Assembly (NCBI GenBank): GCA_012729395.1
Contig: JAAYDF010000229.1
Location: forward strand, 299 to 64,298
Direction of reading: 5' to 3'
DNA: 64,000 nt
Source: Phycisphaerae bacterium
GTDB lineage: Bacteria; Planctomycetota; Phycisphaerae; UBA1845; PWPN01
Position 1 is the stretch's first letter. Every line of letters begins with the position of its first letter. A program made the position numbers and the translations under genes. Below are positions 30,820 to 52,186 of this stretch, in pieces. The notes beneath the pieces are model-generated. The model was given only the letters and a program-made list of their open reading frames with translations. It made no database searches and was not told the DNA's origin.

Positions 30820-30849
30820 TGCTCATACTCGCCACATGGGGAGACTCAC

Positions 30850-34551: not shown

Positions 34552-34594
34552 GCGACGCCCCATGAGTCTCCATGACCTACCGTCCGACATGAGT

Positions 34595-34628
34595 AGGATA
34601 GCAAAGCTAACCTGAAGCCTGCGTGAAG
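34595..34628 (-). promoter_or_regulatory. OmpR-type direct-repeat box and -10 element upstream of the regulator (autoregulation)
   Basis: Minus strand CTTCAC-N5-CTTCAG-GTT, 8 nt, TATCCT. Confidence 0.65.
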
Positions 34629-34904
34629 ACCACCAGAAATCGGCTTGTCGCCGATCTCCCCCCGTCCGGAGCGGGGCCAGAGCGGTAGCCCATGGCCAGC
34701 CAGCAACCGAAGGCGGAGCCGCGACCGGAAGGAAGCGCTGATCGCCGGCACCGCCCGTTTGCGACAGTGGCTCTGCTTGGCAACCGGCGCCCGAGATTCC
34801 ATCACCGGCGGAAGACGGGAAGCGCCGCAAGGCAACGCCGTCATGGCAGTCCTGGAATCGCCGCACCACTTCCCTCAACGCCGCCCCGGGAATCCGCACC
34901 AAGC

Positions 34905-35005: not shown

Positions 35006-35785
35006 TCAGGCTGCCCGGCGACGCCGACGGGCCACCACCATTCCGCCCAGTGCTAACAGGCAGATGGACGCCGGCTCGGGGACAATCACGAACGCGCTGG
35101 TTCCGCTGGCTTGGTCACCCGGGCTGAGAATGAACTCGAACTCGCTTTCCATCATGTAAACCGTCGTGCCCAGATCGCTCCAACCCAGAGCGGGCAGCCG
35201 CTCAGTCATGCCCTGCCCAAAATCCGTGCTGAATTGCGCAACAAGGCTCGCAAAAGCGGTATTCGTCCACACTACAGGGTGCGTACCGTAACGCGCCTGG
35301 TAGAGCTTCTGATTCGGGAAGGTGCCGGCCGAAGTCAGTGAAGCGTTGGCCGGGCTACCCGCCCCGTCGGTCAGCGTCAGCGAAGCGGTAGCCCGGGCTT
35401 CCGCGTTCGGTATCCCATCGAACACCAACCGAGCCGCCTTGATGCTCACATACACCGGGTCGGTCATGCTACTGTTGGTCACCGCAAATCGCAGGTCAAC
35501 CTGGGGGTCAGCGTCGAACACCACACCCAGATCGCTGAAGACGGCCAGTTCCTGGCCCTCGTCTGCCATCACCAACCCCTGGATCGCCCACGGCAGCACT
35601 CCGCCAAAGCTCGCGACAGGAAACACCTCCGAGAAGGTGTCCGTATGCCCGCCACATGTAGCCGTGACCTCAATGATGCTGGCCGTGGCCGGGGACGCTC
35701 CACCCAACGCGGCCCCCGTGCAGACCAACACGCCCACAGCCGCCAACGCAACCCACCGCAACTGTGCAGACAATCCGTGAACCAT
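35006..35785 (-). CDS. PEP-CTERM surface protein
   Basis: Signal peptide; VPEPASICLLALGGMVVARRRRR; AAGGAGG RBS before ATG 35785. Confidence 0.9.
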   Translation of the reverse strand: MVHGLSAQLRWVALAAVGVLVCTGAALGGASPATASIIEVTATCGGHTDTFSEVFPVASFGGVLPWAIQGLVMADEGQELAVFSDLGVVFDADPQVDLRFAVTNSSMTDPVYVSIKAARLVFDGIPNAEARATASLTLTDGAGSPANASLTSAGTFPNQKLYQARYGTHPVVWTNTAFASLVAQFSTDFGQGMTERLPALGWSDLGTTVYMMESEFEFILSPGDQASGTSAFVIVPEPASICLLALGGMVVARRRRRAA

Positions 35786-36174
35786 GGAAACCCTCCTTAT
35801 GGTACCTCCCGAGCCCGCTCTATGTGCCCGGTCTTGACTTGATGCCACCCTCCAGCCGCGGCAACCCACCGCGATCTGCGAAGGCTATGTGTCTGGAAAG
35901 GCTGCTTGCTAGGCAGGGCCTTTCGCCTCCTTATCCGGCGAGTCTATCCGATGACGCATTGGATTGCAAGAGAAACAACGATATTCGTATCAGAGATCTT
36001 CTCGCGTCCGTCCATCCGCCTGGTTCATCCCCTGGCGCACATAACACATTGCGATACAATATCTTATGGAATCATAGACTCCTGTCATCCCTCGATCGAG
36101 GCTCGTCACGGCGACAAATCTACCTAAACATGTCCTCTTTTTCGGTCATCCAGAAACCCAGCCTGGAGCTTCAG

Positions 36175-38385
36175 CTATTCCTTTTCGCCTACCGCAAACC
36201 AAGTCGATTTGAGAACCGAGTAATCGAGGATATTCGCAACGCCATCCCCGTTGATATCCCCGATTCCCGCGATGCCCCAATGCGTCTTGAGCAGTGAGTA
36301 ATCGAGCACGTTCACCGAGTTGGATCCGTTGAGATCGCCGCCAAGCAGCACGAAGTCGATCGTTCCCTGCCCTTCCTCCGACAATGCCCCCTCCTGCCTT
36401 CGTCGCAAATGCCAGGCGGTCTTCGCACTCAATGCCGCGATGCCTGCCGGCACGTCCGTCAGAACGTAGGAGCCGCTGGCTACCTCTTCGTGGTTGGTGA
36501 AGTCGACACTGATCGTCCACGACTTCAGCACACCGCCCCCCTCGCCGCTGGCAACGAAGACCACGTCCCGCACGAAGCCGTAATCCACAGAGGAGTAGGT
36601 CGCCAGCCGCACCGTACCGGCCATCTGCCGGTCAAAACACAACACGCCGGCCAGCTCGGCGTTGTTCCCGGCACGGTCCCTCGCCATCCCTTGGATCATC
36701 CATTCGCCCGTCTCCGTATCCTCGTCGATGTTCACAACATAGTTGAACTGCCCCGCGGGATTCTCCCCCGAGTACGTAACCGGCAACGTGAGGTTCCCCT
36801 TGCCCGCCGACACGACAGGCGGCCCCTCCAGGCCGGCCAACAGATCAGCCGTCGTCACGGCAACCCGCACCTCGCCCTGGTGGGTCAAATGTGCGCAAGC
36901 CAACACATCGACCCCCACCCCGCCCTGCTCCTGCGTGGCCGCCAACGCGATCGTCGGCGGCGTGCCATCGACCACAATCGCCTGGCTATCCACCTTCCGA
37001 GGCAGAACCGTCAACCCCCATGTGTCCGCGAACATCGTGGTCCGCGTCAATCCGGGGTCCGGCGCAGGATCGGGACGGAAAACGAGCCGTGTCGTCCCCT
37101 CGCCTGTCGCAACCAAGCTGATCACCGCCGTCGTGGCGTCTTCTTGCGTCCCCAACTCGCCGGATTGCAGATCCACCCCGACCGCCATATCCAGGTCACC
37201 CTCCTCTTTGAGCACGCTGTAGATGACCTCGTTCCAGGGTGGAGCACCGGGAGCAACGTTCACGTCGCCGGGCGCCGTCGAGAAATGCGATGAACTGAAC
37301 GCCAAAAACGCCTGCAAGCCCGTGACCCGCTGAGCCAGGTTCAGGGCATCCAGATCCACAACGACCTGATCGCCCGGACGCACGTGGGCGGGATCTCCCT
37401 GCACGTTGAACCGTAATGTGTTGTGCTCCCAGGTCAGCCCTGCCTGCTGTGCGATCCAGCCCCCGGATGGGAACAGCATGATGCCCCCCCCGGCCGAGCC
37501 AAACATCGGAGCCGCGTAGGGTTGCCCGGTGAAACGAGCGATATAGGTGTTGATGCCCGCCAGCTTGTACGATCCGCCGTCCACAATGAAGGCCGGTCCG
37601 CCCGAGTCCCCGAAACCATAGGTCGTCTCGATCGCGTTTCCCAAGGTCAAATCGCCCAGGATGTTGGTGGCCTCGTCAGGACCGTCGAAATCGAAGACGA
37701 ACACCTCCGAAAACCCTCGGCCCTCGTCATCCAAAAAAGACACGTCGGCCACGTTTCGGCCCCATCGCTTGACGTATCCGTTTTCCATGAACCACGGGTG
37801 AAACCCAATATCCCCCCATCCGCTACGCCCATACCCCACGAACGTCAGCACGTCGCCCTGGGTCATTGGGCGGGCGAGGATGTCATAGATCGGCACGCCC
37901 TCCGGAATCGGTTCCTCCAACGTGAGCACCGCCAAATCGTCGTTGAGTGCCGGGCGAGAGAATCCGGAGAAATCCGGGTGAAGCTGGATCTCGCTCACGC
38001 CGAGCGTGTGCGTCAAGTCCCCGCCGAAGTTCAACGTGAACGTGACCTCCTCAGGAAGGTCGTCCGCGATGCCGTCGTTGTCCAAATCGATGACGTGGGC
38101 CGCTGTTAAAACGTGAAACCGGCTGATCGCCACACCCGTCGCCCGGAACGCGCCGTTCACCGCCAAACCGCCAACGCCCCCAAAGGGCGAAGTCACGTCG
38201 TTCGGGTCCACCCGATACGCCGGGTCGTCGGGCGGGGATACCAGATATCCCCCGGCCAGGAGAACCGCTTCCACATCATCCAGCAGAACATCCTCAGCCC
38301 GAAGAGGCTCCTCGCCCCCGGCGATCGCTCCTCCCAGAACACACCATGCGCACAGATACCTCAATACAAAACGTGAGTTGACCAT
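36175..38385 (-). CDS. secreted trypsin-like serine protease with cohesin-like, Ig-like, X-module-like and dockerin-like domains
   Basis: LTAAH, DDLAVL, GDSGGP triad; VRPGDQVVVDL..VTGLQAFLAF cohesin-like; DRAGN Ig; GDLNGSNSVNVLDY...GDINGDGVANILDY duplicated Ca loops. Confidence 0.85.
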   Translation of the reverse strand: MVNSRFVLRYLCAWCVLGGAIAGGEEPLRAEDVLLDDVEAVLLAGGYLVSPPDDPAYRVDPNDVTSPFGGVGGLAVNGAFRATGVAISRFHVLTAAHVIDLDNDGIADDLPEEVTFTLNFGGDLTHTLGVSEIQLHPDFSGFSRPALNDDLAVLTLEEPIPEGVPIYDILARPMTQGDVLTFVGYGRSGWGDIGFHPWFMENGYVKRWGRNVADVSFLDDEGRGFSEVFVFDFDGPDEATNILGDLTLGNAIETTYGFGDSGGPAFIVDGGSYKLAGINTYIARFTGQPYAAPMFGSAGGGIMLFPSGGWIAQQAGLTWEHNTLRFNVQGDPAHVRPGDQVVVDLDALNLAQRVTGLQAFLAFSSSHFSTAPGDVNVAPGAPPWNEVIYSVLKEEGDLDMAVGVDLQSGELGTQEDATTAVISLVATGEGTTRLVFRPDPAPDPGLTRTTMFADTWGLTVLPRKVDSQAIVVDGTPPTIALAATQEQGGVGVDVLACAHLTHQGEVRVAVTTADLLAGLEGPPVVSAGKGNLTLPVTYSGENPAGQFNYVVNIDEDTETGEWMIQGMARDRAGNNAELAGVLCFDRQMAGTVRLATYSSVDYGFVRDVVFVASGEGGGVLKSWTISVDFTNHEEVASGSYVLTDVPAGIAALSAKTAWHLRRRQEGALSEEGQGTIDFVLLGGDLNGSNSVNVLDYSLLKTHWGIAGIGDINGDGVANILDYSVLKSTWFAVGEKE

Positions 38386-38880
38386 CAGGTTAGCGCCTCT
38401 TTGCCCAGCGTTCCGTCGATACCCATCCGCCGGCACGCCCCGCTCACCCAGAATGCGGCTCAGCAGAACGCTCCGAGCAGCCCCCCTTGGAGTGGTGCTC
38501 CGACAGCCCCCATCTTGCTCAGGTTTTTTCTGATCTCTCGATAAGCATACCCGCCCCGGTAACGCTCTGCAAGCCGCCTGGTCGAAATCAGCCCCGTGAG
38601 TGATCCACGAACGATGGCAATCACCGTTTTTCCGGGTTGGCCGCTCCTGAGAGGTGGACCACAAGGTTATCTACCGCAGGGATTTGCCCATCCGACCCGG
38701 CGGCAGCCCCCCCGAACGCCCCCCCTCGACGTGCCGAGAGCTCCTGGTCCTTCGGCTTATCGCTCCCTCCCCGCAGAAGAGACTCTTCGCCCGCCTCTAT
38801 GGACCAACGCTCGGGCGGACAGCACTTCCTTGCCGCCACGAGGATCAGCGGGGGCTCTGGCGAAAACCGGACCCTGGCAC

Positions 38881-38908
38881 TTGACATCGGCGTCTCAAGT
38901 CATACATT
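38881..38908 (+). promoter_or_regulatory. sigma70-type promoter
   Basis: TTGACA-N16-TACATT upstream of the receiver gene. Confidence 0.5.
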
Positions 38909-39093
38909 GAGGCTAGCGCTGGGTTCTGCCCCAACCGGGCTAAACGCGTCGGACCGCCGTGGAGAAAGTAAACGTTACACGCGCCGACAAGCATTCCGGC
39001 CTGGCTCTCGTGCTGACAACTGGATCTGGCAAACACTAACGCAGCTTCGTACGCGGAAGGTCTGAGCGGCCGTCTGATGCAAGGGCCACGCTC

Positions 39094-39570
39094 GTGGATG
39101 ACACGCCGGTCAAAATCGCTTTAGTCAGTCACGACCGCCGACACCGTCGGTTTCTTGCGAAGACTCTCCACTCCCCTCAAGCACTGCAACTGGTCGCGGA
39201 ATTCGAGGGTTTCACGGCTCTTTCCGCGCGCACTCTGGCAACCACTGCGGACCTTGTCGTTCTTTACCTGGCCTCGACCGACTGCCATCGGCAAGTTCCG
39301 ATGCTCGATCTTCTCTGCGATTTATCAGATTGCATGAAGGTGATTCTCGTTGGTGAATGCCAGAATGAGGAGCATGTCGCCGCTCTGCTGCGCACCGGGG
39401 CTCATGGCTATGTGCTGAACGAACGTGCCGACCAGGAATTGCCAACCGCCATCGAGTCTGTGCTTCGTGGTCGTCGTTTCATCTCGATGCCGATCCTCGA
39501 TGCCATGGCTTTCAGGTTCATCGACCGAGAAAACGATACGCCCTCTTGTTCGGACGCTGATTCGACGTGA
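39094..39570 (+). CDS. NarL-like receiver domain without HTH; pseudo-receiver
   Basis: VKIALV...DLVVLY...KVILV...GAHGYVLNE..ELPTAIESVLRGRRFIS; Tyr at the phospho-Asp position, Asn for the conserved Lys. Confidence 0.72.
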   Translation: MDDTPVKIALVSHDRRHRRFLAKTLHSPQALQLVAEFEGFTALSARTLATTADLVVLYLASTDCHRQVPMLDLLCDLSDCMKVILVGECQNEEHVAALLRTGAHGYVLNERADQELPTAIESVLRGRRFISMPILDAMAFRFIDRENDTPSCSDADST

Positions 39571-39853
39571 ATTTGTTCCCAATGCGCCCAGGACTTCTGG
39601 TCGCATTGCACCACGGATGCTCCTGTCCGGGGCCTGGGATCCAGGGCGATGCTGCTGCGCGATGTGCCGCCGGGAGAGACCGAAACCCGCCTGACAACAC
39701 CTCTCATCACGGCCGGCCCCCATTTGTAGGGCCCGATCCCTCTTGCCTGGGTCGGACACAAACGGCCGGAAATCACCGTCCGGCGTACCGCCCAAGGTTC
39801 CGGGCCGCTCGCAGTAGAGAGCCTCACTATTTACGAAAATCAGAAATCTTCGG

Positions 39854-39881
39854 TTGACAGATCACGCCGATCGCGTATACT
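39854..39881 (+). promoter_or_regulatory. strong sigma70-type promoter for the cohesin-dockerin gene run
   Basis: TTGACA-N16-TATACT, ~480 nt upstream of ATG 40366. Confidence 0.6.
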
Positions 39882-40365
39882 GGGGCACGTCGCTGACGCA
39901 GCACAAGGGGAAGCTTCGTCGGCCGATGGCAGCGCGAGGCGATGCCGTCTCCATAGATCGCGTATCCAGCGGTCCGCTCACGAGCCTGGATAGCTCGCGT
40001 CGGACCCACAGGGGAACAGGGGAAGGAGTTGATGGGGTAAAGCACAAATGTGCAGTGGCGACAAAGGGGAAGCAACCACCTTTCCGCCATGGGTCGGGGA
40101 CTTCGAGGGGCTGACATCGTCGCCTCGATGCCGCGCCTTGCTCTCGGCATGATCCACGTCTCGAGCAGGTGCTGCCCCCACCCCACCCTAACTGTCCTCC
40201 CGCAAACGAACCTCGGGTATGCGCTTGCCCCGTGGATTGTCGCCTGCGCGTATCCGCGATGAGCGCGGGCCAGAGCCGCTCTCGCCACGTCGTCGGACTA
40301 GGCCACTAACCGAGGCAGGAAGCGCCTCACGGCCTGATCGAGGCCCTGACAAAGGAGCACGAATC

Positions 40366-43300
40366 ATGAAAGGTGCATTGAATCTGCTGATCATCTTGGC
40401 GATGTGCGCAGGCACGGCCTGGGCGGATACCGTGTCCATTTCGGCCGGGGGCGACAGCACCACGGCGATTCAGACCGCGATCGATGGTGCGTCCGAAGCC
40501 CGGACCATCGTGCTGCAAGCCGGCACGCACGCAGTGTCAAGCCAAGTCAACGTCAACAGGCAAGATATTACCATCCAGGGTGAAGATCCCGCGAACACGC
40601 TCGTCCAGGTGAGCGGTACGGGATATCGCTTCTCGATCGCGGCTGCGGGCGCGGTCATCGAGAATCTGACACTGGAGAAAACCGACAAGACCGGCGTCCA
40701 GAACCTCATCTACATCGGAGCCAGCAACGCAACCATTCGCGGAAACGTGATCTTTGGTCGGTACGTCATGGGCGATCCCGAGGTCAGTCGTGCCCTGGAG
40801 GTGACCTACGGAATCAGCGGGCTGACGATCGAGGAGAACGAAATCTACGCCCTCCGCCAACCCGCCTACATCAACGGCAGCCTGGCTTCACCCACGACGG
40901 GCAACATCACCAGTAACTACGTACACGGTACCAGGGGCTGGGTGATTGCCGGTGCCAACATGACCTTCAGCGGCAACACCTGGGGCAGCGGTGCCGACAC
41001 GAACTACCTGGACATCGCCATCCTGGCCGGAACCGATCCGAGCTACTACACGGACATCCCGGCACTCAGCGCGGCCCATCACGGCGCCGTGTTCGAGGAT
41101 CAACGCGTGAGCCCGGCCACGCTGACCACTGTCTATGTGGACGCCAACGCGGCTCCCGGCGGTGATGGAACGGTCACCAAACCCTATCAGACGATTACCC
41201 CAGCTGTTGCCCGTGTGATGACCGGCGGAACAATCCTCGTCGCGGCGGGCACGTACAACGAAACGGTCAGCGTGAGCAAATCGGTCAGCTTCGTTGGAGC
41301 AGGCTGCGGACAGACCATCTGGCGTGGTAGCGCCATCACCAGCCACTCCCTGAAAATCGTTCGTGACAACACCTCGCCGGCCGATGTCCACGTCGCCATC
41401 ACCGGTTTCTCCTTTGAAACCGAGAACAACCAGACCATTCGAGGCGACTGGAGCACAAGCTACGCCGAGGCACTGACGCTGGATATCCACGACAACTGCT
41501 TCGCACACGTGAACACCAGAAACCCCGGCACGGATTTCGCTCTCTACGTGAACGGCGCCAACCAGACCGCTCGCGACACCGAGGGGGCGATTCGCGTCTA
41601 CAACAACCAGTTTGATGTCGTGACCGGCGGCGTGCTCTTCGAGTATTGCCGTGCGGTGGACCTGCTGGACAACGACTTCCGCGTGACCTTTGAGGGCGTC
41701 ATCTTCAACTACTACGGGAACTCAGGTGCCTGCGGCGAGCAGTTGGTCAAGGGCAACGTGTTTACCCATGTTCCCGTTGAGTGGGCCCTGGCCATGAACA
41801 ACTGGCACGGAACGGGCAACTACACGGTCCTGCCAAGCGCAGTCACGAATAACGAGATCACCGCTACGGGCTTCTCCTACGCGATTCTCTATGGCGTTGC
41901 CGCGTCTCAAAGCCAGGCGCACGATTTCACGATCCAGGACAATGCCCTGCTGAGCGGCACGGTTTTTGTTTGGGGTGATTACGCCAGCCAAATCCTGCTG
42001 AACGCCTCGGGGAACTGGTGGGGCAGCATCGCCAGCCCGGCCGGCCGCATCAACACTGCCGGCAGCGTCGACTACACCCCGTGGCTGGGCGGCGGAGACG
42101 ACACAAGCACCGATCCCGGCTTCCAGGGCAACTTCTCCACCCTCTGGGCATCGGCCGCCAGCCCGCAGACCGGCACGACGGGCCGAATCCAGGAGGCTAT
42201 CAATTCTGTCGACGGCAGTACGGTCAACGTGCTGCCGGGAACCTACGCGGAGAGACTCACGATCAACAAGTCGCTGAACCTCTATGGGCCGCAGAAAGAC
42301 GTCGATCCCACGGCATCCGGGGCGCGCACCAACTCAGCCAATGAGGCAATCGTAACCTGCGCGGGGCTCTCTACTCCCAACCCCGACGTTCTCATCGAAA
42401 TCCCCACCGGGGTCACAGGCGTCGTTATCGACGGCCTCACACTCCAGGGTCACCCCACCAACCCCGTGGCAGACACATCGATTGTGCGTTGCTGGGGCAG
42501 CGACCTCACCGTGTCGAACAACATCATGGACGGCTGGTATGCGGTCATCTTCAAAGGCGGTAACAACCTGACCGTCTCCGACAACCGCGTGACGGTCAAC
42601 AAGGTCGGCGTGGCTTGCCAGCCAGGCACCAGTACTGAGATTACTTTGGCTGGCAACACATTCGTGCCGGGCACCAGCTCGGCAGCCGATTCACAGGCGG
42701 CGTACATGACCGCGGTGACCCATATGACCCTCACCGACAACGTCGCCTCCGGCTTCGGCGGGTCGGCGGTGGCCGGCAGTAATCTCTCCAACGTGCTCAT
42801 CGAGGGCAATGTACTCACCAACTGCCGCGACGGCGTCAGTTTCTGGGGCAGCACCTACGACGTGGTGATCCGTGAGAATGAGCTGAGCGAACACACGCGA
42901 TACGGCATCAACTTCAAGGGGCAGAACCTCGACGTGCTTGACAATCGAATAGCGGATAACGGCAACACCGGCATCAACGTCGAACGGCATGTCATCGATA
43001 CGCTGAACATCCATGTTCATGGAAATGAGATATTCGGAAACGCCAGCTTCGGCTTGAAGGCTGCCGCGAACATCACCGGGGTGGTGGACGCGGAAAACAA
43101 CTGGTGGGGCCACGCTTCGGGTCCATACGACCCCGATGGTTCGGTCGAAGCGGACATCAACAACTGCGCCGACCCAGCCGTCATCAAGAATCCAAATGGG
43201 TTAGGCGACTTGGTCAGTGATGTCCAGGTCGACTACTGCCCATGGCTGCTTGGGCCGACCGCCCCCAACGCACTCTACCTGGTGCCGACAAGCGAAAGCA

Positions 43301-44523
43301 TCTACATCAAACCAGGCGAAAGCGCGATTGTCGATATGAACGTGGCGAATCTTCTTCAGAAGGTGAACGCCTGCCAGGCGATGCTCGGGTACTCGTCCAC
43401 TTACTTCGAGGATCCGACGGCTGGAACGGTTGGACTGCCTGCCTCGGGACCGTGGGATCAGCTTATCTGGGATTCCTGGCTGAATTCAAGCGGAGCACCG
43501 GGTGAGATTGACACGGCCATCGGTGTCAACGCGGCGGGGACCGTGGGCACGGACGCCGACGGCAAGGTGTGCAAGATCACGCTGACCGCGAGGGCCGGCG
43601 TGCAAGGCATCACTCAGATAGTCTTCCGCCCGGACGCGGATCCGGATCCAGGCCTGGTGGCCAGTACTTACCTTTCGGACATGTTGGGCAACCCGGTCTG
43701 GCCGACCAAATTCGACAGCATTGGTATCGTCATCGACGACACGGATCCGGCGGTGGCGGCCCTGACGGCCACTCAGGACCAAGGCGCCGGCGCGGTGGAT
43801 GTGCTGAACTGTGCGGCGACGACCCTGCAGGGCACGGTGGCCATCAGCGTGGGCGCGTCGGATGCCCTGGCCGGTATCGAGGCCGAGCCGGTCGTCACCG
43901 TCACGCAGGGCGGCGACGCACTGACCGTGACCTACGCAGGTGAATCGCCGGCGGGAACGTTCAATTACACCGTGGACATCGAGCCCGACGCGGCCAATGG
44001 CACCTGGACGATCGAGGCGACAGCCACGGATAAGGCCGGCAACGACGCCTCGGTATCCGGGACTCTGTGCGTAGACAAGAACCAGATCACCGGCCAGGTG
44101 GAGTTGGAGTCGCTGGTCGGCGGTCTGACTCGCACGGTGACCTTCGTGGCCACGGGCGGGGTCAAGAAGACCTGGGACATCCCGGTGGTCTTCCCCGCCG
44201 GCAGTGCGGTCGGCACCTTCACGCTGACCGAGGTGCCGGATGGAACCACCGCCCTCAGCGCCAAGACGAACTGGAATCTGCGTCGCAAGGTGGACTGCAG
44301 CCTCGACGGTGACGGCCAAGCTTCGGCCGACTTCATCGGCACCGCCAAGCTGCGCGGCGGGGATATCAACGGCTCCAACTCGATCAACATCCTCGACTAC
44401 TCGGTGATGAAGATCAGTTGGATGGCCACCACCGCTGGCGACATCAACGGCGACGGGGCCACCGCCATGCTCGACTACTCGATCATGAAGAGCAACTGGT
44501 TCGTGGTGGGCGACGCCGAGTGA
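40366..44523 (+). CDS. secreted right-handed beta-helix (pectin-lyase fold) protein with cohesin-like, Ig-like, X-module-like and dockerin-like domains
   Basis: Signal peptide ending AWA; three beta-helix units (TAIQTAID, PYQTITPAV..AGTYNE, IQEAIN..PGTYAE) with NWWG...DYxPW caps; tail IKPGESAIVDMNV...DKAGN...GDINGSNSINILDY...GDINGDG. Confidence 0.85.
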   Translation: MKGALNLLIILAMCAGTAWADTVSISAGGDSTTAIQTAIDGASEARTIVLQAGTHAVSSQVNVNRQDITIQGEDPANTLVQVSGTGYRFSIAAAGAVIENLTLEKTDKTGVQNLIYIGASNATIRGNVIFGRYVMGDPEVSRALEVTYGISGLTIEENEIYALRQPAYINGSLASPTTGNITSNYVHGTRGWVIAGANMTFSGNTWGSGADTNYLDIAILAGTDPSYYTDIPALSAAHHGAVFEDQRVSPATLTTVYVDANAAPGGDGTVTKPYQTITPAVARVMTGGTILVAAGTYNETVSVSKSVSFVGAGCGQTIWRGSAITSHSLKIVRDNTSPADVHVAITGFSFETENNQTIRGDWSTSYAEALTLDIHDNCFAHVNTRNPGTDFALYVNGANQTARDTEGAIRVYNNQFDVVTGGVLFEYCRAVDLLDNDFRVTFEGVIFNYYGNSGACGEQLVKGNVFTHVPVEWALAMNNWHGTGNYTVLPSAVTNNEITATGFSYAILYGVAASQSQAHDFTIQDNALLSGTVFVWGDYASQILLNASGNWWGSIASPAGRINTAGSVDYTPWLGGGDDTSTDPGFQGNFSTLWASAASPQTGTTGRIQEAINSVDGSTVNVLPGTYAERLTINKSLNLYGPQKDVDPTASGARTNSANEAIVTCAGLSTPNPDVLIEIPTGVTGVVIDGLTLQGHPTNPVADTSIVRCWGSDLTVSNNIMDGWYAVIFKGGNNLTVSDNRVTVNKVGVACQPGTSTEITLAGNTFVPGTSSAADSQAAYMTAVTHMTLTDNVASGFGGSAVAGSNLSNVLIEGNVLTNCRDGVSFWGSTYDVVIRENELSEHTRYGINFKGQNLDVLDNRIADNGNTGINVERHVIDTLNIHVHGNEIFGNASFGLKAAANITGVVDAENNWWGHASGPYDPDGSVEADINNCADPAVIKNPNGLGDLVSDVQVDYCPWLLGPTAPNALYLVPTSESIYIKPGESAIVDMNVANLLQKVNACQAMLGYSSTYFEDPTAGTVGLPASGPWDQLIWDSWLNSSGAPGEIDTAIGVNAAGTVGTDADGKVCKITLTARAGVQGITQIVFRPDADPDPGLVASTYLSDMLGNPVWPTKFDSIGIVIDDTDPAVAALTATQDQGAGAVDVLNCAATTLQGTVAISVGASDALAGIEAEPVVTVTQGGDALTVTYAGESPAGTFNYTVDIEPDAANGTWTIEATATDKAGNDASVSGTLCVDKNQITGQVELESLVGGLTRTVTFVATGGVKKTWDIPVVFPAGSAVGTFTLTEVPDGTTALSAKTNWNLRRKVDCSLDGDGQASADFIGTAKLRGGDINGSNSINILDYSVMKISWMATTAGDINGDGATAMLDYSIMKSNWFVVGDAE
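44068..44369 (+). repeat. copy 1 of a 302-bp near-identical repeat encoding the X-module
   Basis: Matches 47929-48230 with 9 mismatches by manual codon alignment. Confidence 0.9.
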
Positions 44524-44730
44524 GCCATCAGCCCGGCGGGCATCGCATTGGAGCCGGCCGGTTGCGTGCCCAAGGAGGGGTAAGCCCGATGGATCGCATG
44601 TGACGTATCGGTTCCGTCGGAATGGACAGGCAGATCCCCCGCATGGGAAACCCTGGCGGCAGCGGGCCGTCACCCCAAGCGGATAGAGCAATGACGGCCG
44701 ACCAGAGGCCCACACGAAGGAGCATGCAAG

Positions 44731-47700
44731 ATGAGACGATCAGGAATGGTATGGCTGACAGCGCTGGCGGTGCTGGTCACCGCGGGCAGCGCATGGGCGG
44801 ACTGGCACACGCTGGTGATCCGCAATGCGACGACCAGCGGCAATCCGCCGGCAATCGTGGACAACACTGACTACGGTGTGCCGGCCAAGGAGTTCATCAT
44901 CGCGGAAGGTGGCCAGAAAGCCGCATGGAGCACATCGGTGCTCGACGGTTTCACTGTTGGGGAGATTGCCCAACTGGCGGTCACCCGCTTCGACGATCGA
45001 ACGCGATTTGCGCCGACGTCCGGCGGCTATAGCGCCCCCTACTTCAACATCTGGATCACCGATGGCTCGGGACAATACGCGGTGATCGCTAACGAGCCGT
45101 CGGACTCGGTATTTCAGCCCCTTTACAGCAACGGCTACGATCTGACCTGGGCGGATATCTCCGACAAGCCGGTCAAAGTATACGAAAACAGCGACATAAG
45201 CTGGCTGCCCAACAACGGCGTAGGTCTGACTTTTGACGATATCAAGGACTTCGTGATCCAGGCTCCGTCGCCCGCCGAACTGGCCGCGGGCTGGCCCGGC
45301 CTGGGGACAGGCGCTCCGCGAGAACTAGGCACCAACATCGCCTACGGCTTCAACTGGATCCTTGGCGACACCCTCAGCAACTATGTGTCCGGCGATCCCG
45401 GTTACATTCTTGCCCAGCCCGGCGCCGGCGCGTTCGTGACGACGAACTACACCGTCACCCCGCAGATTCTTGCCGCCGGCAAGCCGGAGTTCAGCGCTCC
45501 GCACGGCACGGGCGATAACCCGTTCGGCTATGACTGGGACTCGCGGGCTCCGGACACGGCTGCCGGCGCCCCCACCGGTTACGGATCGTCGAGCTTCTAC
45601 GCCAACGTCGATCACAGCGACCCCGATCCTGACAGCCGCTACGTCACGCTGCGCATCGGGCTGCGCGACCTCTTCGGCCGCGAGGTGACCATCGGTGAGC
45701 TGACTGCCCTGAGCTACTGGACCAACAAACCCACCGACCAGACAGCCATGGATTATCGCGTCACCATGTACACGACTTTCGACGACAGCGACAACCAGAA
45801 TGGCGCGTCCTGGTACCGCAGCCGGCTTCAAGCCAGCCCGCACGCTGCCGCCAATCTCTCCGCCCCCGCCGATACGTGGAACCAGTGGACCACCGGCGGA
45901 GCAACCAACGAATTCCGCTTCTACGAGTCCACCAGCAAGCGCAGCTACTCGAACATGGCCTGGACGGACATCACGGACGGCGAAACCACATGGGACTACT
46001 CCGGTGAAGAAATCATGATGATCGATATCGGGCTCGGCACAAGAAGCAGCAGTCCAGCCTCCTGGTGGACCGGTGAAAGCCGGCTTGACGGCCTCCGCAT
46101 CGAACTGGCCAACGGCCAGATCGCCGACATCGACTTGGCCGCGGGCACGGCCTGGCAAGTCGCCACCGTGCACGGCCACGATCAGTTCACCATCAGCGAC
46201 GGCGGCTCTACCCTCCTCTACCACGCTCAGCCGCGCAACAGCAAGGAGTGGTACTGGTTCAACAACAACGGATCGGCCCCCGACGTCCTGGCGACCGGCG
46301 GGTTCGGGCCCAACGGCTGGCGAGACGGCTCGCGCACCTTTGCCGTATCCGACGTCGCGGTGGGCAAGAAGCTCAATGAGATCAAGCTGGCCTTCGAGTA
46401 CAACAACACCCTCGGCGGCTATACGACCATGAACTTCTTCCTTACCGACGGCAACGGCAAGTTCGGTATCTTTGCCCCCACTTCTCTCGGGATCCAGGCC
46501 ATCTCCGAGCAGGTCGTGGTCGATGGCTGGACACGGATCACCTTGGATCTGACCAAAACGAGCATTGCCGACTCCACAGCCGTCGCCATCTATGAGCACA
46601 ACGGATTCACCGATGTTTACGGCAACCCCTATACCACCATGACCTGGGGGGACATCAAGGAGTACACCATCGCCGGCATGTACGACTACCAGCGCAGCCC
46701 GGCCCACGGCTGGAGCAAATGGGGCAAGATGTTCGACCCAATCAACATCGCCGGCGAGGATGCGGTGGTCAACGGCTACGGCCTTGCCTTGATCTGGGGC
46801 GATACCGTCGGTAACACCGCCTACGCCACCCAACAGCGACAGATCCGCAACGTGCAGGTCTCGTTCGACACCGTCGACTACCTCGGCACCTTCGCCGATG
46901 CCCAGATCCGCGACATTCTCGAGCTCAACGTCCAGCCTGACAGCCTGTACGTCAAGCCCAGCGAGAGCGTTACACTCAATATGGACGTCAAGAACCTGCA
47001 GCAGATGGTCAACGGTTGCCAGGCGCTCATTGGCTACGACTCCGAGTACTTCCCGGCTGCCGGCACGGTCGCCCCGGGCGGCGGCGGAGTATGGGAAGAA
47101 CTCATCTATGAAGTCTGGCGAGATATCGCGGGCGAGTTGGACACGGCCATCGGCGTCCAGCTGACCGGAGGTGCGGGTACGGATGACGACGGCACAGTGG
47201 CGATCATCGCCCTGACCGCCGGCACCAAGGAAGGCACTACCCAAATGGTCTTCCGTGCTGACGGCGAATACGGCTACGCCACCATGCTCAGCGACTTGAA
47301 CGCCGAGCCCGTATGGCCGACGAAGATCGACAGTCAGACCATCGTCATCGACGGGACGGACCCGACGGTCGACACGTTCTCCGCAGACCCACTGTGCACC
47401 AAGACCACCACCACGCTGACCTTCACGGTCTCGGACGCTCTGGCCGGCGTGGACTATGTGGATGTTTACGTGGACGGTGCCAAGGTCGCCGAGGATGTCG
47501 CCAGCCCGTACGCGCTGGACATGAGCGGCTACGCGACCGACTGTTACGACGTGACCCTCAAGGTGGTCGACAAGGCCGGCAACGAAGCCGACAGCTCGGC
47601 GGTCGAGGTCTGCGTGGACAAAACCGCCCCGGCAATCAGCAACATCGCGGCCGAGCAGGATGGCGAAGACGTGCTCTGCCCGGCGGTGGCGGTGCAGGGC

Positions 47701-48387
47701 GTCGTGAACATTTACGTGGACGTCACCGACGCCGGCTGTGCCGATCTCGTGGTCCCGCCCGCGCTGACTGTGGACGGTATCGGCGCGGCGGTCTATGTGG
47801 ACGTGAGCGGCGATACCTACCACTATCAGGTGACGATCAGTGGCGCGACCGCCAACGGTGCTCATACCATCACCGTCGAGGCCGCGGATGCTCTGGGTAA
47901 CACCGCGTCCGACAATGCCCAGGCTATCTGCGTGGACAAGAACCAGATCACCGGCCAGGTGGAGTTGGAGTCGCTGGTCGGCGGTCTGACTCGCACGGTG
48001 ACCTTCGTGGCCACAGGCGGGGTCAAGAAGACCTGGGACATCCCGGTGGTCTTCCCGGCCGACAGTGCGGTCGGCACGTTCACGCTGACCGAGGTGCCGG
48101 ATGGAACCACCGCCCTCAGCGCCAAGACGAACTGGAACCTGCGTCGCAAGGTGGCCTGCAGCCTCGACGGTGACGGTCAAGCTTCGGCCGACTTCACCGG
48201 CACCGCCAAGCTGCGCGGCGGGGATATCAAGCCTGACAACTACATCAACATCCTTGATTACTCGGTCTTGAAGAGCAACTACTTGTCGTCGAACGACGTG
48301 GCCGACATCGACGGCGACGGCACCGTCGGTTTGGTGGACTACTCCCTAATGCGGTCCAACTGGTTCCAGCCAGGAGACGCGGAGTAG
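44731..48387 (+). CDS. secreted protein: unknown Trp-rich beta-sandwich-like cargo domains plus cohesin-like, two Ig-like, X-module-like and dockerin-like domains
   Basis: Signal peptide ending AWA; internally related N-terminal units (YAVI..VYEN..GFNWILGDT versus FGIF..IYEH..GLALIWGDT); tail VKPSESVTLNMDV...DKAGN...DALGN...GDIKPDNYINILDY...ADIDGDG. Confidence 0.82.
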   Translation: MRRSGMVWLTALAVLVTAGSAWADWHTLVIRNATTSGNPPAIVDNTDYGVPAKEFIIAEGGQKAAWSTSVLDGFTVGEIAQLAVTRFDDRTRFAPTSGGYSAPYFNIWITDGSGQYAVIANEPSDSVFQPLYSNGYDLTWADISDKPVKVYENSDISWLPNNGVGLTFDDIKDFVIQAPSPAELAAGWPGLGTGAPRELGTNIAYGFNWILGDTLSNYVSGDPGYILAQPGAGAFVTTNYTVTPQILAAGKPEFSAPHGTGDNPFGYDWDSRAPDTAAGAPTGYGSSSFYANVDHSDPDPDSRYVTLRIGLRDLFGREVTIGELTALSYWTNKPTDQTAMDYRVTMYTTFDDSDNQNGASWYRSRLQASPHAAANLSAPADTWNQWTTGGATNEFRFYESTSKRSYSNMAWTDITDGETTWDYSGEEIMMIDIGLGTRSSSPASWWTGESRLDGLRIELANGQIADIDLAAGTAWQVATVHGHDQFTISDGGSTLLYHAQPRNSKEWYWFNNNGSAPDVLATGGFGPNGWRDGSRTFAVSDVAVGKKLNEIKLAFEYNNTLGGYTTMNFFLTDGNGKFGIFAPTSLGIQAISEQVVVDGWTRITLDLTKTSIADSTAVAIYEHNGFTDVYGNPYTTMTWGDIKEYTIAGMYDYQRSPAHGWSKWGKMFDPINIAGEDAVVNGYGLALIWGDTVGNTAYATQQRQIRNVQVSFDTVDYLGTFADAQIRDILELNVQPDSLYVKPSESVTLNMDVKNLQQMVNGCQALIGYDSEYFPAAGTVAPGGGGVWEELIYEVWRDIAGELDTAIGVQLTGGAGTDDDGTVAIIALTAGTKEGTTQMVFRADGEYGYATMLSDLNAEPVWPTKIDSQTIVIDGTDPTVDTFSADPLCTKTTTTLTFTVSDALAGVDYVDVYVDGAKVAEDVASPYALDMSGYATDCYDVTLKVVDKAGNEADSSAVEVCVDKTAPAISNIAAEQDGEDVLCPAVAVQGVVNIYVDVTDAGCADLVVPPALTVDGIGAAVYVDVSGDTYHYQVTISGATANGAHTITVEAADALGNTASDNAQAICVDKNQITGQVELESLVGGLTRTVTFVATGGVKKTWDIPVVFPADSAVGTFTLTEVPDGTTALSAKTNWNLRRKVACSLDGDGQASADFTGTAKLRGGDIKPDNYINILDYSVLKSNYLSSNDVADIDGDGTVGLVDYSLMRSNWFQPGDAE
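47929..48230 (+). repeat. copy 2 of the 302-bp near-identical repeat encoding the X-module
   Basis: Matches 44068-44369. Confidence 0.9.
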
Positions 48388-48545
48388 TCCGTGTGAAGGC
48401 AGAAGGGTCTTGATGGCAGTCGGCAGGCGCCGGCGGGACGACCGCGTCCCGCCGGCGCTGCGTGGCACCGATACCACACCGACACACGGCGGCATCCCGC
48501 CACGGGCCCAACGGAAGCGACCCGTGGCCTGGAGAGGAGGAGGTT

Positions 48546-49874
48546 ATGCGGCAACAAGCACTCAGGCCGGCCTTGCTCGCACTCGGACCTGCGCTGGCGG
48601 TCGTTCTGGTAGCACTGGGTCAGCCCACGCCTGCGATGGGCAACCCGAACACCCTCGCGCTCGAGGTGTCTTGCGAATCGTTGTTTGTCCAGCCGGGCGA
48701 GCCAGTGGTGCTCGGTCTCGACGTCTCCAACCTCGCTCAGATGATCAACGGCTGCCAAGCACTCATCGGGTACAACTCGACCTACTTGACCAGCCCCCAC
48801 AGCGTGGCTCCCGGCGGCGGGTTCTGGACCGAACTGATCTACGAAAGCTGGCACGCACCGGGCGAGCTCGACACCGCCATCGGGCTGCAACTCGAAGGCG
48901 GTCCGACGGGAACCCAGGCCGACGCAACCATAGCCACCATCACCCTGACGGCCGGAACCACGGAAGGAGCCACCTTCCTCGTCTTTCGCTCCGACACCGA
49001 CGACAGATACGCCACCATGCTCAGCGACCTGAACGCCGAGCCCGTATGGCCCTTCAAAATCGATAGCCAACCCATCGTCATCGACGGTACGCCCCCTGTG
49101 CTGGTCGACCTGACCGCGACCCAGAACGGAGTTGATGTCCTTGACTGCGCCAATCCAACCGTCCAGGGCTTGGTGAGTATCACGGTGGACGCGGCCGACG
49201 TCCTGGCCGGCCTGGAGGGTATCCCGAGCATCGACATCACCGGCCCTGAAACCCTCGCCGCCACCCTCACCGACGACGAGGGGCCGAGCTTCGGATGGGA
49301 GGTCGTCATCGGTCCGACTACCCCCCAGGGTACATACACCATCGCCATCACCGCAACGGATCGCGCGGGCAACGAAACCACCGCGACAGGCACACTGTGC
49401 GTGGACCCTAACCAGATCACCGGCACAGTACAGATGAGCACGTTATCGGGTGCAGCATACGGCTTTGACCGCGAAGTGGTGTTCAAGGCGACGGATACCG
49501 GGAATACCGTGCTCCAAACATGGACAGTCACCGTGACCTTCACGAACAACCCGGTAACGAGAACCGCCGCCGGCTCCTATGTACTGACCCTGGTGCCCGG
49601 CAGCACGGCGAGGCTTAGCGCCAAGACGGACTGGAGCCTGCGGAAGCGGATACCCGTGACTCTGGACACCTATGGCCAAGGGGTGGCGAACTTCACCCTA
49701 ACCAGCGGCGATCTCGACGGCTCCAACACCGCGAACATCCTGGATTACTCGATACTCAAGGCGAACTGGATGACCGCCGGCCCAGCCGGCGATTACAACG
49801 GGGACAGCCAAGTCATGCTGCTGGACTATTCGCTGCTGAAAAATGCCTGGTTCACAACCGGCGATCCCGAGTGA
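48546..49874 (+). CDS. secreted cargo-less cohesin-Ig-X-dockerin protein (adaptor or spacer)
   Basis: GGAGG RBS; signal peptide directly followed by VQPGEPVVLGLDV cohesin-like domain, DRAGN Ig, GDLDGSNTANILDY...GDYNGDSQVMLLDY. Confidence 0.85.
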   Translation: MRQQALRPALLALGPALAVVLVALGQPTPAMGNPNTLALEVSCESLFVQPGEPVVLGLDVSNLAQMINGCQALIGYNSTYLTSPHSVAPGGGFWTELIYESWHAPGELDTAIGLQLEGGPTGTQADATIATITLTAGTTEGATFLVFRSDTDDRYATMLSDLNAEPVWPFKIDSQPIVIDGTPPVLVDLTATQNGVDVLDCANPTVQGLVSITVDAADVLAGLEGIPSIDITGPETLAATLTDDEGPSFGWEVVIGPTTPQGTYTIAITATDRAGNETTATGTLCVDPNQITGTVQMSTLSGAAYGFDREVVFKATDTGNTVLQTWTVTVTFTNNPVTRTAAGSYVLTLVPGSTARLSAKTDWSLRKRIPVTLDTYGQGVANFTLTSGDLDGSNTANILDYSILKANWMTAGPAGDYNGDSQVMLLDYSLLKNAWFTTGDPE

Positions 49875-49976: not shown

Positions 49977-50056
49977 GCAGTACGTTCCCGTCGGTGGAGT
50001 TGCCCGTGCAGTCAACGAGCGGGAAGGCGGAAAAGCATCACTCTCGGAGGACAGCC

Positions 50057-50737
50057 ATGGAAAGTCGCACATACCTCGCATGTGGTCTGCTTGTTCTAGG
50101 AATGCTCATGCCGGTCCCGGCGTGGGGGCATGATATGGTTCAGCCCCCATGGCGAGGCGATGAAGGCACAACCTATCAGGAGTGGCGGTTTGACACCGAC
50201 GCCAACCCCGCTTTGCCCGAGGTGATCTCAAATTCATACGGCTCTGCCATGGCATCCATCGTCCTTGGCGACTATGCCTCCGGGTGGCAGGTGCAACTCC
50301 CCAGCCTCGGCGATCAGATCGGATACTGGGATCTCGGCGGGGATCGAGGCAACGGCGGCGGGAGCATCCTGATCGATGTCGACAATCGGCCGCTGGCTCT
50401 CGAGTGCAAAGAGGTTTGGGTGCAGGTGACGTACTTCCGTGACATGTCCCAAGCTCCAACAGTCACCGTACCCGGCGCAGCCTACGTCACCGGGCAAACC
50501 CTGCTGGTCGAGCACGTACTCACCGGCGGAGATTGGTACCTGGATCAGTCCATCTGGCGGATCGAGCCCAACCCGGATCACGAGCAAATCCTCATCACCA
50601 GCGACCCGACGTGGGGATCGGTGATTGACCAGATCGTGATCGACACGATCTGTATCCCTGAGCCGGCTACCATGGGACTGTTCCTGGTCGGATCCTGGGC
50701 GATGATCGCCCGACGGCGCAGGGCCGCTCGCGTCTGA
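50057..50737 (+). CDS. PEP-CTERM surface protein
   Basis: GGAGG RBS, signal peptide, IPEPATMGLFLVGSWAMIARRRR. Confidence 0.9.
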   Translation: MESRTYLACGLLVLGMLMPVPAWGHDMVQPPWRGDEGTTYQEWRFDTDANPALPEVISNSYGSAMASIVLGDYASGWQVQLPSLGDQIGYWDLGGDRGNGGGSILIDVDNRPLALECKEVWVQVTYFRDMSQAPTVTVPGAAYVTGQTLLVEHVLTGGDWYLDQSIWRIEPNPDHEQILITSDPTWGSVIDQIVIDTICIPEPATMGLFLVGSWAMIARRRRAARV

Positions 50738-50906: not shown

Positions 50907-51986
50907 ATGTGCCACCGGCGAACACGCTGGATCGCTCTCGCACTTTGGCTTGTCTGCGCAGCTGGGGTGCAGGCATCCTCATATCAGGTCGAAATCCTCG
51001 GCTCGCTGGAGGGCGGCTTCGCCCGGGCGCGGGCCATCAACGCTCAAGGGCTCATCGTGGGCGAGGCACTGACGCCGGCGAGCGTTGACCACGGGTTCCT
51101 CTGCTCGGGCTTGGGCCAGTTCGCCGACTTGGGCACGCTGGGCGGTACTCGCAGCCGGGCCCTCGCCATCAACGCTGCCGGCCTGATTGCCGGCTGGGCA
51201 CAGAACATCGCGGGCCAGTCCAGACCCGTCCTCTGGGATGAGCACGGAATCCATGAGCTGCCGACGCTTGGCGGAGCTGCCGGCACAGCCTGGGCGATCA
51301 GTGATCTCGGGCACGCGGTCGGCAACTCCTTCACCTCCCCGGGCATCTACCACGCAACCCTCTGGCAAGACGGCGCCGCTTACGACCTAGGCACCTTGGG
51401 CGGCGACTACAGCATCGCCTACGGCATCAACAACCACGACTGGATCGTGGGCAGTTCCGACGACACTCAAGGCCGGGAGCGGGCTGCGCTTTGGCTCGAC
51501 GGTGACGTTCACCTGCTCGACGGCTTGCCGGGGGCCACATGGAGTGCTGCACGCGGGATCAATGACCACGGGCAAGTCATCCTCTGGAGCAATACCACCG
51601 GCGGAGCGTCTCGTGCCGCCCTGTGGGAGGCCGGCATGGTGACTGATCTGGGAACCCTGGGCGGCATCGAAAGCTGGGCTTACGGGCTGAATAATCTCGG
51701 GCACGTGGTCGGGTGGGCCGAGCTCCCGGCGGGCAACTACCATGCCTTTGTCCACGATGGCGGCGAGATGATCGACTTGGGCACACTCGGGGGCATGTTC
51801 AGCTCAGCCTACGGCATCAACGACGAGGGGGTGATCGTCGGGTATGCACAGGACGCAAGCGGGCAATGGCAGGCCGTCCGCTGGGTACCGGTACCCGAGC
51901 CCGCCACGTTATCCCTGGCCCTCACCGCCCTCGCCTGCTTCGTTGCCAGCATCCGACGTGCCCCTGCGCACGATCGGCCGGCGTAG
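50907..51986 (+). CDS. HAF-repeat extracellular beta-propeller protein with PEP-CTERM tail
   Basis: Repeated DLGTLGG..S.A.GIN..G.IVG...HAF units; VPEPATLSLAL. Confidence 0.92.
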   Translation: MCHRRTRWIALALWLVCAAGVQASSYQVEILGSLEGGFARARAINAQGLIVGEALTPASVDHGFLCSGLGQFADLGTLGGTRSRALAINAAGLIAGWAQNIAGQSRPVLWDEHGIHELPTLGGAAGTAWAISDLGHAVGNSFTSPGIYHATLWQDGAAYDLGTLGGDYSIAYGINNHDWIVGSSDDTQGRERAALWLDGDVHLLDGLPGATWSAARGINDHGQVILWSNTTGGASRAALWEAGMVTDLGTLGGIESWAYGLNNLGHVVGWAELPAGNYHAFVHDGGEMIDLGTLGGMFSSAYGINDEGVIVGYAQDASGQWQAVRWVPVPEPATLSLALTALACFVASIRRAPAHDRPA

Positions 51987-52186
51987 CCATTACCGATCCT
52001 CCATTCAAGGTGCCCTCAGAACAACACTTGTGGCGAAGGCCTCCTGGCTTCAGCACGTCACAAAGCGTCCGATACCCCCTCCTCGATCAGAACTTACTGG
52101 TCGGCAGCATTTCCGACACCTACAGTTTACAATCTGAGGTGTTCATCGGAACCGACACCTCCGGGCCAGTACAAGGGAAAAAGGGT

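Follow-up and report, generated by a model that had tools for sequence, protein, structure and literature searches.

To our knowledge, the plug-and-socket pairs formed by cohesins and dockerins have been studied almost only in cellulose-degrading clostridia and ruminococci. In 2009 Peer and colleagues reportedly surveyed cohesin and dockerin modules that occur outside cellulosomes in a range of bacteria and archaea, and we know of no non-cellulosomal cohesins that are carried in an X-dockerin cassette on every subunit, or that form a shuffled tandem cluster. The closest described counterparts are the CohI9-X-DocII end of Clostridium thermocellum CipA (3kcp, 4fl4), the type II X-dockerin dyads (2b59, 5g5d, 4u3s, 4wi0, 5m0y, 5k39), and adaptor scaffoldins such as Acetivibrio cellulolyticus ScaA, which carry both a cohesin and a dockerin (PMC11557425). 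Here we describe a cluster of four genes at positions 36175-49874 of a 64,000-nucleotide (nt) stretch of DNA, the window, to whose positions all coordinates refer. The window comes from the 5.7-Mb, 370-contig metagenome assembly of a Phycisphaerae bacterium. Each of the four proteins ends in one shared cassette that contains a cohesin and an X-dockerin, and two states of the cohesin are combined with two types of X module in all four ways. We put at about 75% the probability that recombination among tandem paralogues, including one recent tract, made this two-by-two pattern and that the proteins can join head to tail.

The four long open frames encode a trypsin-like protease on the minus strand and, on the plus strand, a beta-helix/NosD-like protein, a protein of 1218 amino acids (aa) and a protein that lacks cargo. 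Their C-terminal ~410 residues are alignable throughout, in the order cohesin (~150 residues), immunoglobulin-like (Ig) module of the Big_13 family, X module (~90 residues) and dockerin (58 residues). The 1218-aa protein has two Ig modules and each of the others has one. Judged by eye, a signal-peptide-like stretch follows the likely ATG of all four genes.

The names cohesin and X module appear apt for these modules, judging from predicted structures. The cargo-less protein, folded with a 19-row alignment, gave a model with a mean predicted local distance difference test score (pLDDT) of 87.7 and a predicted template modelling score (pTM) of 0.73. Its residues 31-181 form a predicted nine-stranded beta-sandwich that superposes on the solved cohesin CaCohA2 (6kgd_A) over 138 of 146 residues (Z 16.9, root-mean-square deviation (rmsd) 2.0 Å), and dozens of other solved cohesins follow at Z 14-17, with more than 40 cohesin entries at Z 12-17. 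The best of these are type I or non-cellulosomal (Z 15.3-16.9) and type II cohesins reach Z 14-15.3, a small gap. The X-dockerin of the 1218-aa protein, folded alone (pLDDT 95.9, pTM 0.89), matched eight type II X-dockerin entries as a whole dyad (3kcp_A, 5m0y_B, 4u3s_B, 4wi0_B, 2b59_B, 4fl4_L, 5g5d_B and 5k39_B; Z 12.9-13.7, rmsd 2.3-2.8 Å, 132-137 of 148 residues), the next match being at Z 6.2, and all ten Foldseek matches at E <= 0.001 were type II X-dockerin dyads. The model thus predicts an Ig-like X module that stands directly N-terminal of the dockerin and packs against it. As in the known dyads, the dockerin has two calcium-binding repeats, each followed by a helix: a duplicated D-x-[ND]-G...LDYS..K..W segment occurs in all four dockerins, and the two helices of the model lie at residues 104-112 and 131-139. 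Dockerin PF00404 scores above its cut-off of 22.9 bits in three of the four proteins (26.3, 27.1 and 25.0 bits), with the dockerin of the 1218-aa protein under it at 21.3 bits. Profile searches of the PDB with the cohesin and X alignments returned nothing usable, the best matches being an iota-carbonic anhydrase (E 0.024) and a pilin (E 0.27).

One recent recombination event is visible in the X modules of the beta-helix and 1218-aa proteins (tract copies 1 and 2 in Table 1). A first nucleotide comparison gave 96% identity over 300 nt; over 302 nt the two differ at nine positions (~97% identity), of which six are synonymous, and both frames stay open. The copies lie 3861 nt apart on the same strand in adjacent genes. 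Outside the tract the two cassettes share 45-70% of their nucleotides, and beyond 44369 identity drops to 72% and then to 43%. Codons are identical in 57 of 60 cases at identical residues, a figure that 0 of 20000 permutations reached (p < 5e-5). The tract starts in a CVDKNQITG motif common to all four genes and ends in the first dockerin calcium loop, so that it spans exactly the X module and its linker and has its ends in motifs conserved on both sides of X; the dockerin itself is not homogenised. Identity far above that of the flanks, synonymous sites included, within one genome marks the tract as gene conversion, and the combination that the beta-helix protein now shows probably derives from it.

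The tract is no artefact of the assembly. The stretch was found in 20 runs of 13 studies, all bioreactor, sludge or wastewater metagenomes, and we checked the tract in contigs from four runs of four studies, with the possible source left out. Every one of these runs has contigs that stop or branch where the two copies agree at the tract borders (44068-44103 and 44337-44369), with forks exactly at 44068 and 44369, and the alternative letters within the tract are those of the other copy. The loose contig ends at the tract borders read the flanks of the 1218-aa gene in runs X2, X7 and X15, and a 3628-nt contig of run X4 links both genes in the same order.

The same contigs show other states of the tract. 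In runs X2 and X4 its first 203 nt (44074-44276) form a single contig with a depth of about the sum of both flanks, with no alternative letters in one run and three in the other; the window copies differ at four sites there. In run X15, record 3 (44074-44498) has another combination of the two copies' letters. These patterns suggest further homogenisation or repeated conversion in other populations, within contigs that cannot phase the flanks with all of the variant sites.

The donor was probably the 1218-aa gene, judging from its relatives. The only full-length homologue of its cargo, P0098 (57% over 755 aa), likewise combines a clade II cohesin with an X module of type 2, and in the dockerin tree the 1218-aa protein joins four other proteins with X type 2 (92/75), a group that leaves out the beta-helix protein.

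Gene conversion and concerted evolution among tandem paralogues are ordinary, general processes. The tract shares with them sharp-ended near-identity bounded by conserved flanking motifs, homogenised synonymous sites and same-strand neighbours as donor and recipient. It differs in that it coincides with one structural module, and therefore changes the protein's combination of modules and not just its sequence, and in that other samples show different allele states inside it.

The earlier note on this DNA had divided the cohesins into a type A with a PDPG insert (FRPDPAPDPGL in the protease, FRPDADPDPGL in the beta-helix protein) and a type B reading FRxDxxxxYATMLSDLNAEPVWP (1218-aa and cargo-less proteins), and the X modules into type 1 (YGF..VVF.A...FTN; protease and cargo-less proteins) and type 2 (LESLVGGLTRTVTFVATGG; beta-helix and 1218-aa proteins). 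All of these strings are present (Table 1), and by those definitions the protease is A1, the beta-helix protein A2, the 1218-aa protein B2 and the cargo-less protein B1. The X types stand as real types. In a tree of 40 X modules from the window, the clusters of five relatives and database homologues, type 2 is a clade of 13 rows set against 27 others with 100/100 support; the main differences are three short loop insertions in type 1 and a longer linker in type 2.

The note had also proposed that the modules recombined independently and had named module phylogenies as the check, and the trees bear this out. The cohesin and X trees, with 40 rows, are incongruent. Approximately unbiased (AU) tests reject, for the X alignment, a single clade of the 12 proteins with clade I cohesins (log-likelihood difference (lnL) -136, p-AU 4e-50) and, for the cohesin alignment, a single clade of the 13 proteins with X type 2 (lnL -319, p-AU 1.5e-8), values that are optimistic for a reason given below. 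Mapping X type onto the cohesin tree takes 11 changes, about the 11.1 that shuffled labels take on average (302 of 500 shuffles were as low), and the supported branches alone force at least five. Counted descriptively, the 36 proteins with one classifiable pairing divide into 9 I/X1, 3 I/X2, 14 II/X1 and 10 II/X2 (Fisher p 0.47). The 122 classifiable among the 142 further representatives divide into 14, 28, 42 and 38 in the same order (p 0.056), and under a stricter margin (n = 58) into 11, 14, 16 and 17 (p 0.79). Loop state and X type likewise show no association among 77 proteins (17, 27, 13 and 20; p 1.0), with 25 more unmatched by the pattern. On the dockerin tree X type 2 needs 7 changes, the shuffled mean being 11.2, and the link between X type and dockerin is therefore partial at best. 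Near-free assortment, the rejected congruence and the fresh tract together uphold the claim of independent recombination.

Two patterns in relatives look like older homogenisation within genomes. The two cohesins inside P0006 are near-identical. Two paralogues of genome G047 (L037, G047:C120, 1256-5686 and 7634-11350) group by genome for cohesin (100/100) and dockerin (100/99), and their X modules fall in different types.

As a module type, cohesin type A does not hold. Of the four cohesins, those of the protease and the beta-helix protein have the lowest pairwise identity over the whole module (57/155, 37%) and those of the 1218-aa and cargo-less proteins the highest (94/144, 65%), and the deep split of the cohesin tree (99/99, or 96/96 without the loop columns) places the protease cohesin in clade I and the other three window cohesins in clade II. 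The insert state needs five changes on this tree, a single clade of the 16 insert-bearing rows is rejected (lnL -105, p-AU 3e-60), and one clade I cohesin of genome G025 has a B-like GENGYATMLSD loop, with its sister P0021 bearing the insert. A and B are states of a short segment of strand 8 and its loop, patchy on the cohesin tree, and not a lineage of modules. The DNA of the two type A loops is only 50-57% identical in 60-nt windows, and there was therefore no recent exchange there.

The note had also pointed to the near-identity of 47275-47318 and 49008-49051, which is indeed 43 of 44 nt. As a sign of exchange it falls short, since it does not go beyond amino-acid conservation and codon usage: of its 13 codons that allow synonymous change, 12 are identical, the background being 107/187 (scan-permutation p = 0.33), and a gene of genome G051 with the same 15 residues matches at 38/44 nt. 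The motif appears to be conserved by selection. The match needs no recent exchange, and a second conversion event here is unproven. The observation of the earlier note is in sum partly confirmed and its interpretation partly supported, in that its evolutionary inference was right and two of its supports needed correction.

Module profiles and a six-frame Pfam search of the host genome indicate that the cassettes form a closed set. Cohesin and X profiles match exactly four times each genome-wide, and every match lies in this cluster. Pfam finds 67 dockerins genome-wide; a profile of the cluster type (LDYS) gives the four local copies 89-98 bits and all others at most 20.5 bits. Every protein of the cluster carries a single socket and a single plug, the plugs all being of one subtype, which suggests mutual binding.

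The other 63 Pfam dockerins (e.g., C218:336-494 and C109:71376-71534) are of a different kind, reading GDVNGDG..NIFDL..VRN among the matches listed, and many stand at the C-terminal end of long open frames. Profile and Pfam searches detected no cohesin partner for them elsewhere in the genome.

A predicted complex supports putative binding of the X-dockerin by the cohesin. For the cargo-less cohesin and the X-dockerin of the same protein the score was 0.81, against 0.04 for the best of three controls; of solved complexes 116 of 157 come up to this mark, and of mismatched pairs 2 of 215, a calibration that applies only roughly here because our own alignment was used. Runs agreed in at least 98% of contacts, with partner pLDDT of at least 94. 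Since cohesin-dockerin complexes have already been solved, the score may reflect likeness to them rather than binding by these copies. The predicted cohesin interface of the cargo-less protein comprises residues 68-71, 96-101, 109-121, 154-155 and 158-166, on strands 3, 5, 6 and 8 as assigned by order in the model's secondary structure. Residues 154-155 and 158-166 take in MLSDLNAEP and the RY found where type A has its PDPG insert, so that the A/B segment lies within the predicted face. Among the four cohesins it varies more than any other part of that face, the contacts on strands 3, 5 and 6 being largely conserved. The 1218-aa protein has the same segment residues as the cargo-less protein, with YLSDMLGNP in the beta-helix protein and MFADTWGLT in the protease. 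On the other side, the predicted dockerin contacts are near-invariant in the four proteins (N-[IV]-LDYS-x-[LM]-K and Y..[LM][KR]..WF), and the dockerin of the 1218-aa protein deviates in its first calcium loop. No X-module residue is named among the confident contacts, which is not evidence that X avoids the cohesin. A role of the A/B segment in binding preference is possible on this model.

X types 1 and 2 are old lineages of the family, brought by repeated reshuffling to near-independent assortment with the cohesin lineage, and the recent 302-nt conversion homogenised the X modules of the beta-helix gene and the adjacent 1218-aa gene, the latter being the probable donor. We propose that, with one socket and one plug per protein, the four could join head to tail, the A/B segment then lying where they touch. 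The shuffling would be mainly a by-product of tandem paralogy, and it may also vary binding preference.

Several points weigh against this reading. At the level of modules, Pfam Cohesin PF00963 has no match at E <= 0.01 in the four proteins or in the six-frame genome search; the cargo-less cohesin scores 18.7 bits with a cut-off of 24.1, and at E <= 10 the family matches 5 of 21 related modules (best 1.8e-8). The cohesin call rests on predicted structure, because that cut-off is not reached. At the level of assembly, the head-to-tail arrangement is one that we infer from domain counts and one predicted complex. At the level of phylogeny, the Fisher tests are descriptive only, because the 40 tree rows, like the 142 further representatives, share ancestry, and the AU p-values are optimistic, because the tested clades were named after both trees had been seen; the underlying splits nevertheless have high support. 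The dockerin tree, with 62 columns and 5 of 37 branches supported, is too short to resolve. The A/B pattern arose either by exchange of patches or by repeated loss of the loop insert. As to conversion, the partial cargo relatives of the beta-helix protein (five with X1, four with X2) leave the donor direction ambiguous. Fresh tracts (at least 85% over at least 60 nt) are absent from the loci of G025, G029, G051 and G047, so that recent conversion is documented only for this species. By sequence, the window cohesins appear to be a divergent branch of the cohesin family.

The earlier note had raised the idea that the types set the order of subunits: A/B states and X types would encode distinct specificities, and the four combinations would fix an ordered chain. 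The idea is kept alive because the A/B segment lies within the predicted dockerin-binding face and varies more than the rest of it; another genome retains the B motif at the amino-acid level, which suggests constraint, and the window has two of each state. On the plug side, however, we see no two-state split to match, the predicted dockerin contacts being near-invariant, and the two type A cohesins are unlike outside the loop (37% identity). Counts of insert/short cohesins and of X1/X2 modules, from inventories that may be incomplete, are moreover unpaired in three of five genomes (window 2/2 and 2/2; G025 4/2 and 5/1; G029 3/4 and 2/4; G051 1/1 and 1/1; G047 0/2 and 1/1). We consider an ordered chain unlikely.

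Alternatively, each cohesin could capture the dockerin at the end of the chain to which it belongs. The result would be a closed and perhaps latent monomer, whose mosaic modules would reflect neutral drift of parts that need only match one another. Cohesin and dockerin do share one polypeptide, in a 1:1 ratio in the window, and the predicted complex used parts of one protein and is hence blind to the difference between cis and trans. Closure in cis leads one to expect co-evolution of cohesin and X-dockerin, yet cohesin lineage and X type assort freely. Relatives with two cohesins and one dockerin (L032 5056-8664, L035 6877-9588 and P0006), or with an X-dockerin and no cohesin (L032 1-4995 and L038 3509-8164), make sense only for binding in trans. 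Self-closure is accordingly improbable in our view. That there was no recombination at all, the proteins being ancient paralogues in which short inserts were retained or lost in parallel and the near-identical X modules an assembly chimera, finds some footing in a 370-contig metagenome assembly and in an insert state explicable by five independent changes, yet it can be set aside as highly improbable, since AU tests reject congruent histories, the tract holds nine differences with both frames open, and both copies have the same boundaries in contigs of four other studies.

Table 1. Features of the cluster and its surroundings, in window positions.
Feature	Position	Strand	Basis or remark
Protease gene	36175..38385	-	Pfam Trypsin E 5.5e-8, Dockerin_1 26.3 bits
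Protease dockerin, LDYS subtype	36178..36348	-	Pfam and cluster-type dockerin profile
Protease X module, type 1	36349..36630	-	X alignment and tree; type 1 pattern 36493-36582
Protease cohesin	36955..37422	-	Cohesin clade I; PDPG-insert loop 37048-37080
Intergenic region	38665-40218		~1.5 kb between the divergent protease and beta-helix genes
Beta-helix protein gene	40366..44523	+	Pfam Beta_helix, NosD, DUF1565, Dockerin_1
Beta-helix protein cohesin	43267..43749	+	Clade II, yet PDPG-insert loop at 43624-43656
Gene-conversion tract copy 1, X module (type 2) of beta-helix protein	44068..44369	+	Nucleotide comparison; type 2 string 44104-44160
Beta-helix protein dockerin	44350..44520	+	Cluster-type dockerin profile; not homogenised
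1218-aa protein gene	44731..48387	+	740-aa cargo, cohesin, two Ig, X, dockerin
1218-aa protein cohesin	46912..47364	+	Clade II; short YATMLSDLNAEPVWP loop at 47251-47319
Gene-conversion tract copy 2, X module (type 2) of 1218-aa protein	47929..48230	+	Nucleotide comparison; type 2 string 47965-48021
1218-aa protein dockerin	48211..48384	+	Most divergent of the four; IKPDNY calcium loop
Cargo-less protein gene, 442 aa from ATG 48546	48546..49874	+	AlphaFold2 (AF2) model, pLDDT 87.7
Cargo-less protein cohesin	48648-49097	+	After signal-peptide-like stretch; type B motif 48984-49052
Cargo-less protein Ig	49098-49409	+	
Cargo-less protein X module, type 1	49410-49697	+	Type 1 pattern 49458-49547
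Cargo-less protein dockerin	49698-49871	+	
Regulator and exporter genes	28700-34902		Adjoin the cluster
Regulator and exporter genes	51713-53197		Adjoin the cluster
PEP-CTERM small protein	35006-35869	-	Directly flanks the cluster
PEP-CTERM small protein	49994-50737	+	Directly flanks the cluster
PEP-CTERM small protein	55883-56518	+	
PEP-CTERM small protein	56549-57283	+	

The limits of the genes in Table 1 take the likely start codons. The open frame of the protease begins at a TTG at 38664; the likely start is the ATG at 38385-38383, where the signal-peptide-like stretch begins and where a 95% identical homologue, P0018, also starts. The frame of the beta-helix protein opens at 40219, the likely start being the ATG at 40366 that precedes its signal-peptide-like stretch. 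The 740-aa N-terminal cargo of the 1218-aa protein matches no Pfam family at E <= 1, and separate pieces of it and of the beta-helix cargo recur in different proteins, so that the cargo is itself a mosaic. Cargo-less homologues occur elsewhere (P0007-P0011, P0013 and P0017).

The region between the divergent protease and beta-helix genes holds only short open frames with no Pfam match, and may be the promoter site for both arms of the cluster. Four small PEP-CTERM proteins are encoded nearby, two of them as its direct flanks. They show no likeness to cohesins by eye, and the genome profile search also found no cohesin there; they might be anchors or companions of the assembly. The adjoining regulator and exporter genes encode a MacB/FtsX permease, an ABC ATPase, an HlyD-like fusion protein, a histidine kinase with an OmpR-type response regulator and a sigma-54 activator.

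The family is a large one. A search for it, from which the 142 further representatives were drawn, returned 7900 proteins with the threshold at E <= 0.001; at E <= 1e-30 the number of representative clusters was 504. Of 61 genomes searched, 13 gave a match, the host among them. Tandem clusters of the same cassette occur in four other genomes of the same family or order, with four to six genes each in G025 and G029 and two cassette genes each within the stretches read in G051 and G047. A search with the single cargo-less protein returned one locus out of 28 candidate stretches, in a Candidatus Hydrogenedentota metagenome-assembled genome that encodes a relative with 41% identity. The same-genus genome G001 (91% complete) has only a fragment of ~120 residues (L039, G001:C29, 8582-8941), which consists of the end of an X module and a dockerin in a 127-aa open frame, within DNA unlike the region of the window cluster; it could be a remnant, or the cluster could have been left unassembled there. 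A literature search found no paper on the cassette, on Hydrogenedentota cohesins, or on gene conversion of cohesin or dockerin modules.

In comparison with the described systems, the cassette appears to be a distant structural counterpart of the CohI-X-DocII end of CipA. It has the same order of cohesin, X and C-terminal dockerin, the CipA fragments 4fl4 and 3kcp are the top Foldseek matches of the whole cargo-less model, its modelled dyad superposes on the type II dyads as one unit, and the predicted dockerin contacts use both helices. Sequence identity, however, is only 17-20%. Unlike CipA, with its nine cohesins, each window protein has one, and an extra Big_13 Ig module stands between cohesin and X; cargo is trypsin-like, beta-helix/NosD-like, unmatched in Pfam or lacking, and the host is not a clostridium. 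Like adaptor scaffoldins, the window proteins have cohesin and dockerin on one polypeptide and so can both receive and be received. Adaptor scaffoldins bridge enzymes to an anchoring scaffoldin through distinct cohesin-dockerin types, whereas the window subunits all have the same kinds, and no multi-cohesin scaffoldin or other cohesin is detectable in the host genome. The non-cellulosomal cohesins of Clostridium perfringens (2vo8, 2jh2, 2w1n) and Archaeoglobus fulgidus (2xdh) match the cargo-less model at Z 14.7-16.6 and, like those of the window, lie outside a cellulose-degrading context. Pfam searches at the thresholds used found no carbohydrate-binding module (CBM) or glycoside hydrolase among the cargo. 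With neither these nor a multi-cohesin scaffoldin, the system would work like a cohesin-dockerin assembly and is no cellulosome.

Gene conversion is in itself ordinary, and the system is the more interesting part: a large, undescribed family with one socket and one plug per protein outside the clostridia. A type II-like X-dockerin is here carried by the protease, beta-helix and cargo-less proteins of an uncultured bioreactor or sludge bacterium. That every subunit has both socket and plug, and that the genome has no other such parts, points to self-assembly into chains, for which the papers turned up by the literature search give no precedent. A bolder possibility, to which we give little credence, is that this is a closed, self-assembling, non-cellulosomal set in which gene conversion actively re-deals, between subunits, both the socket's interface segment and the X module beside the plug. 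If so, populations would differ in who binds whom and the wiring of the assembly would be evolvable, and the differing tract alleles of other samples would be re-dealing caught in the act. The module-exact conversion tract shows how new domain combinations originate in such families, and its products are natural chimeras with which the parts played in binding by the X module and by the strand-8 segment can be probed.

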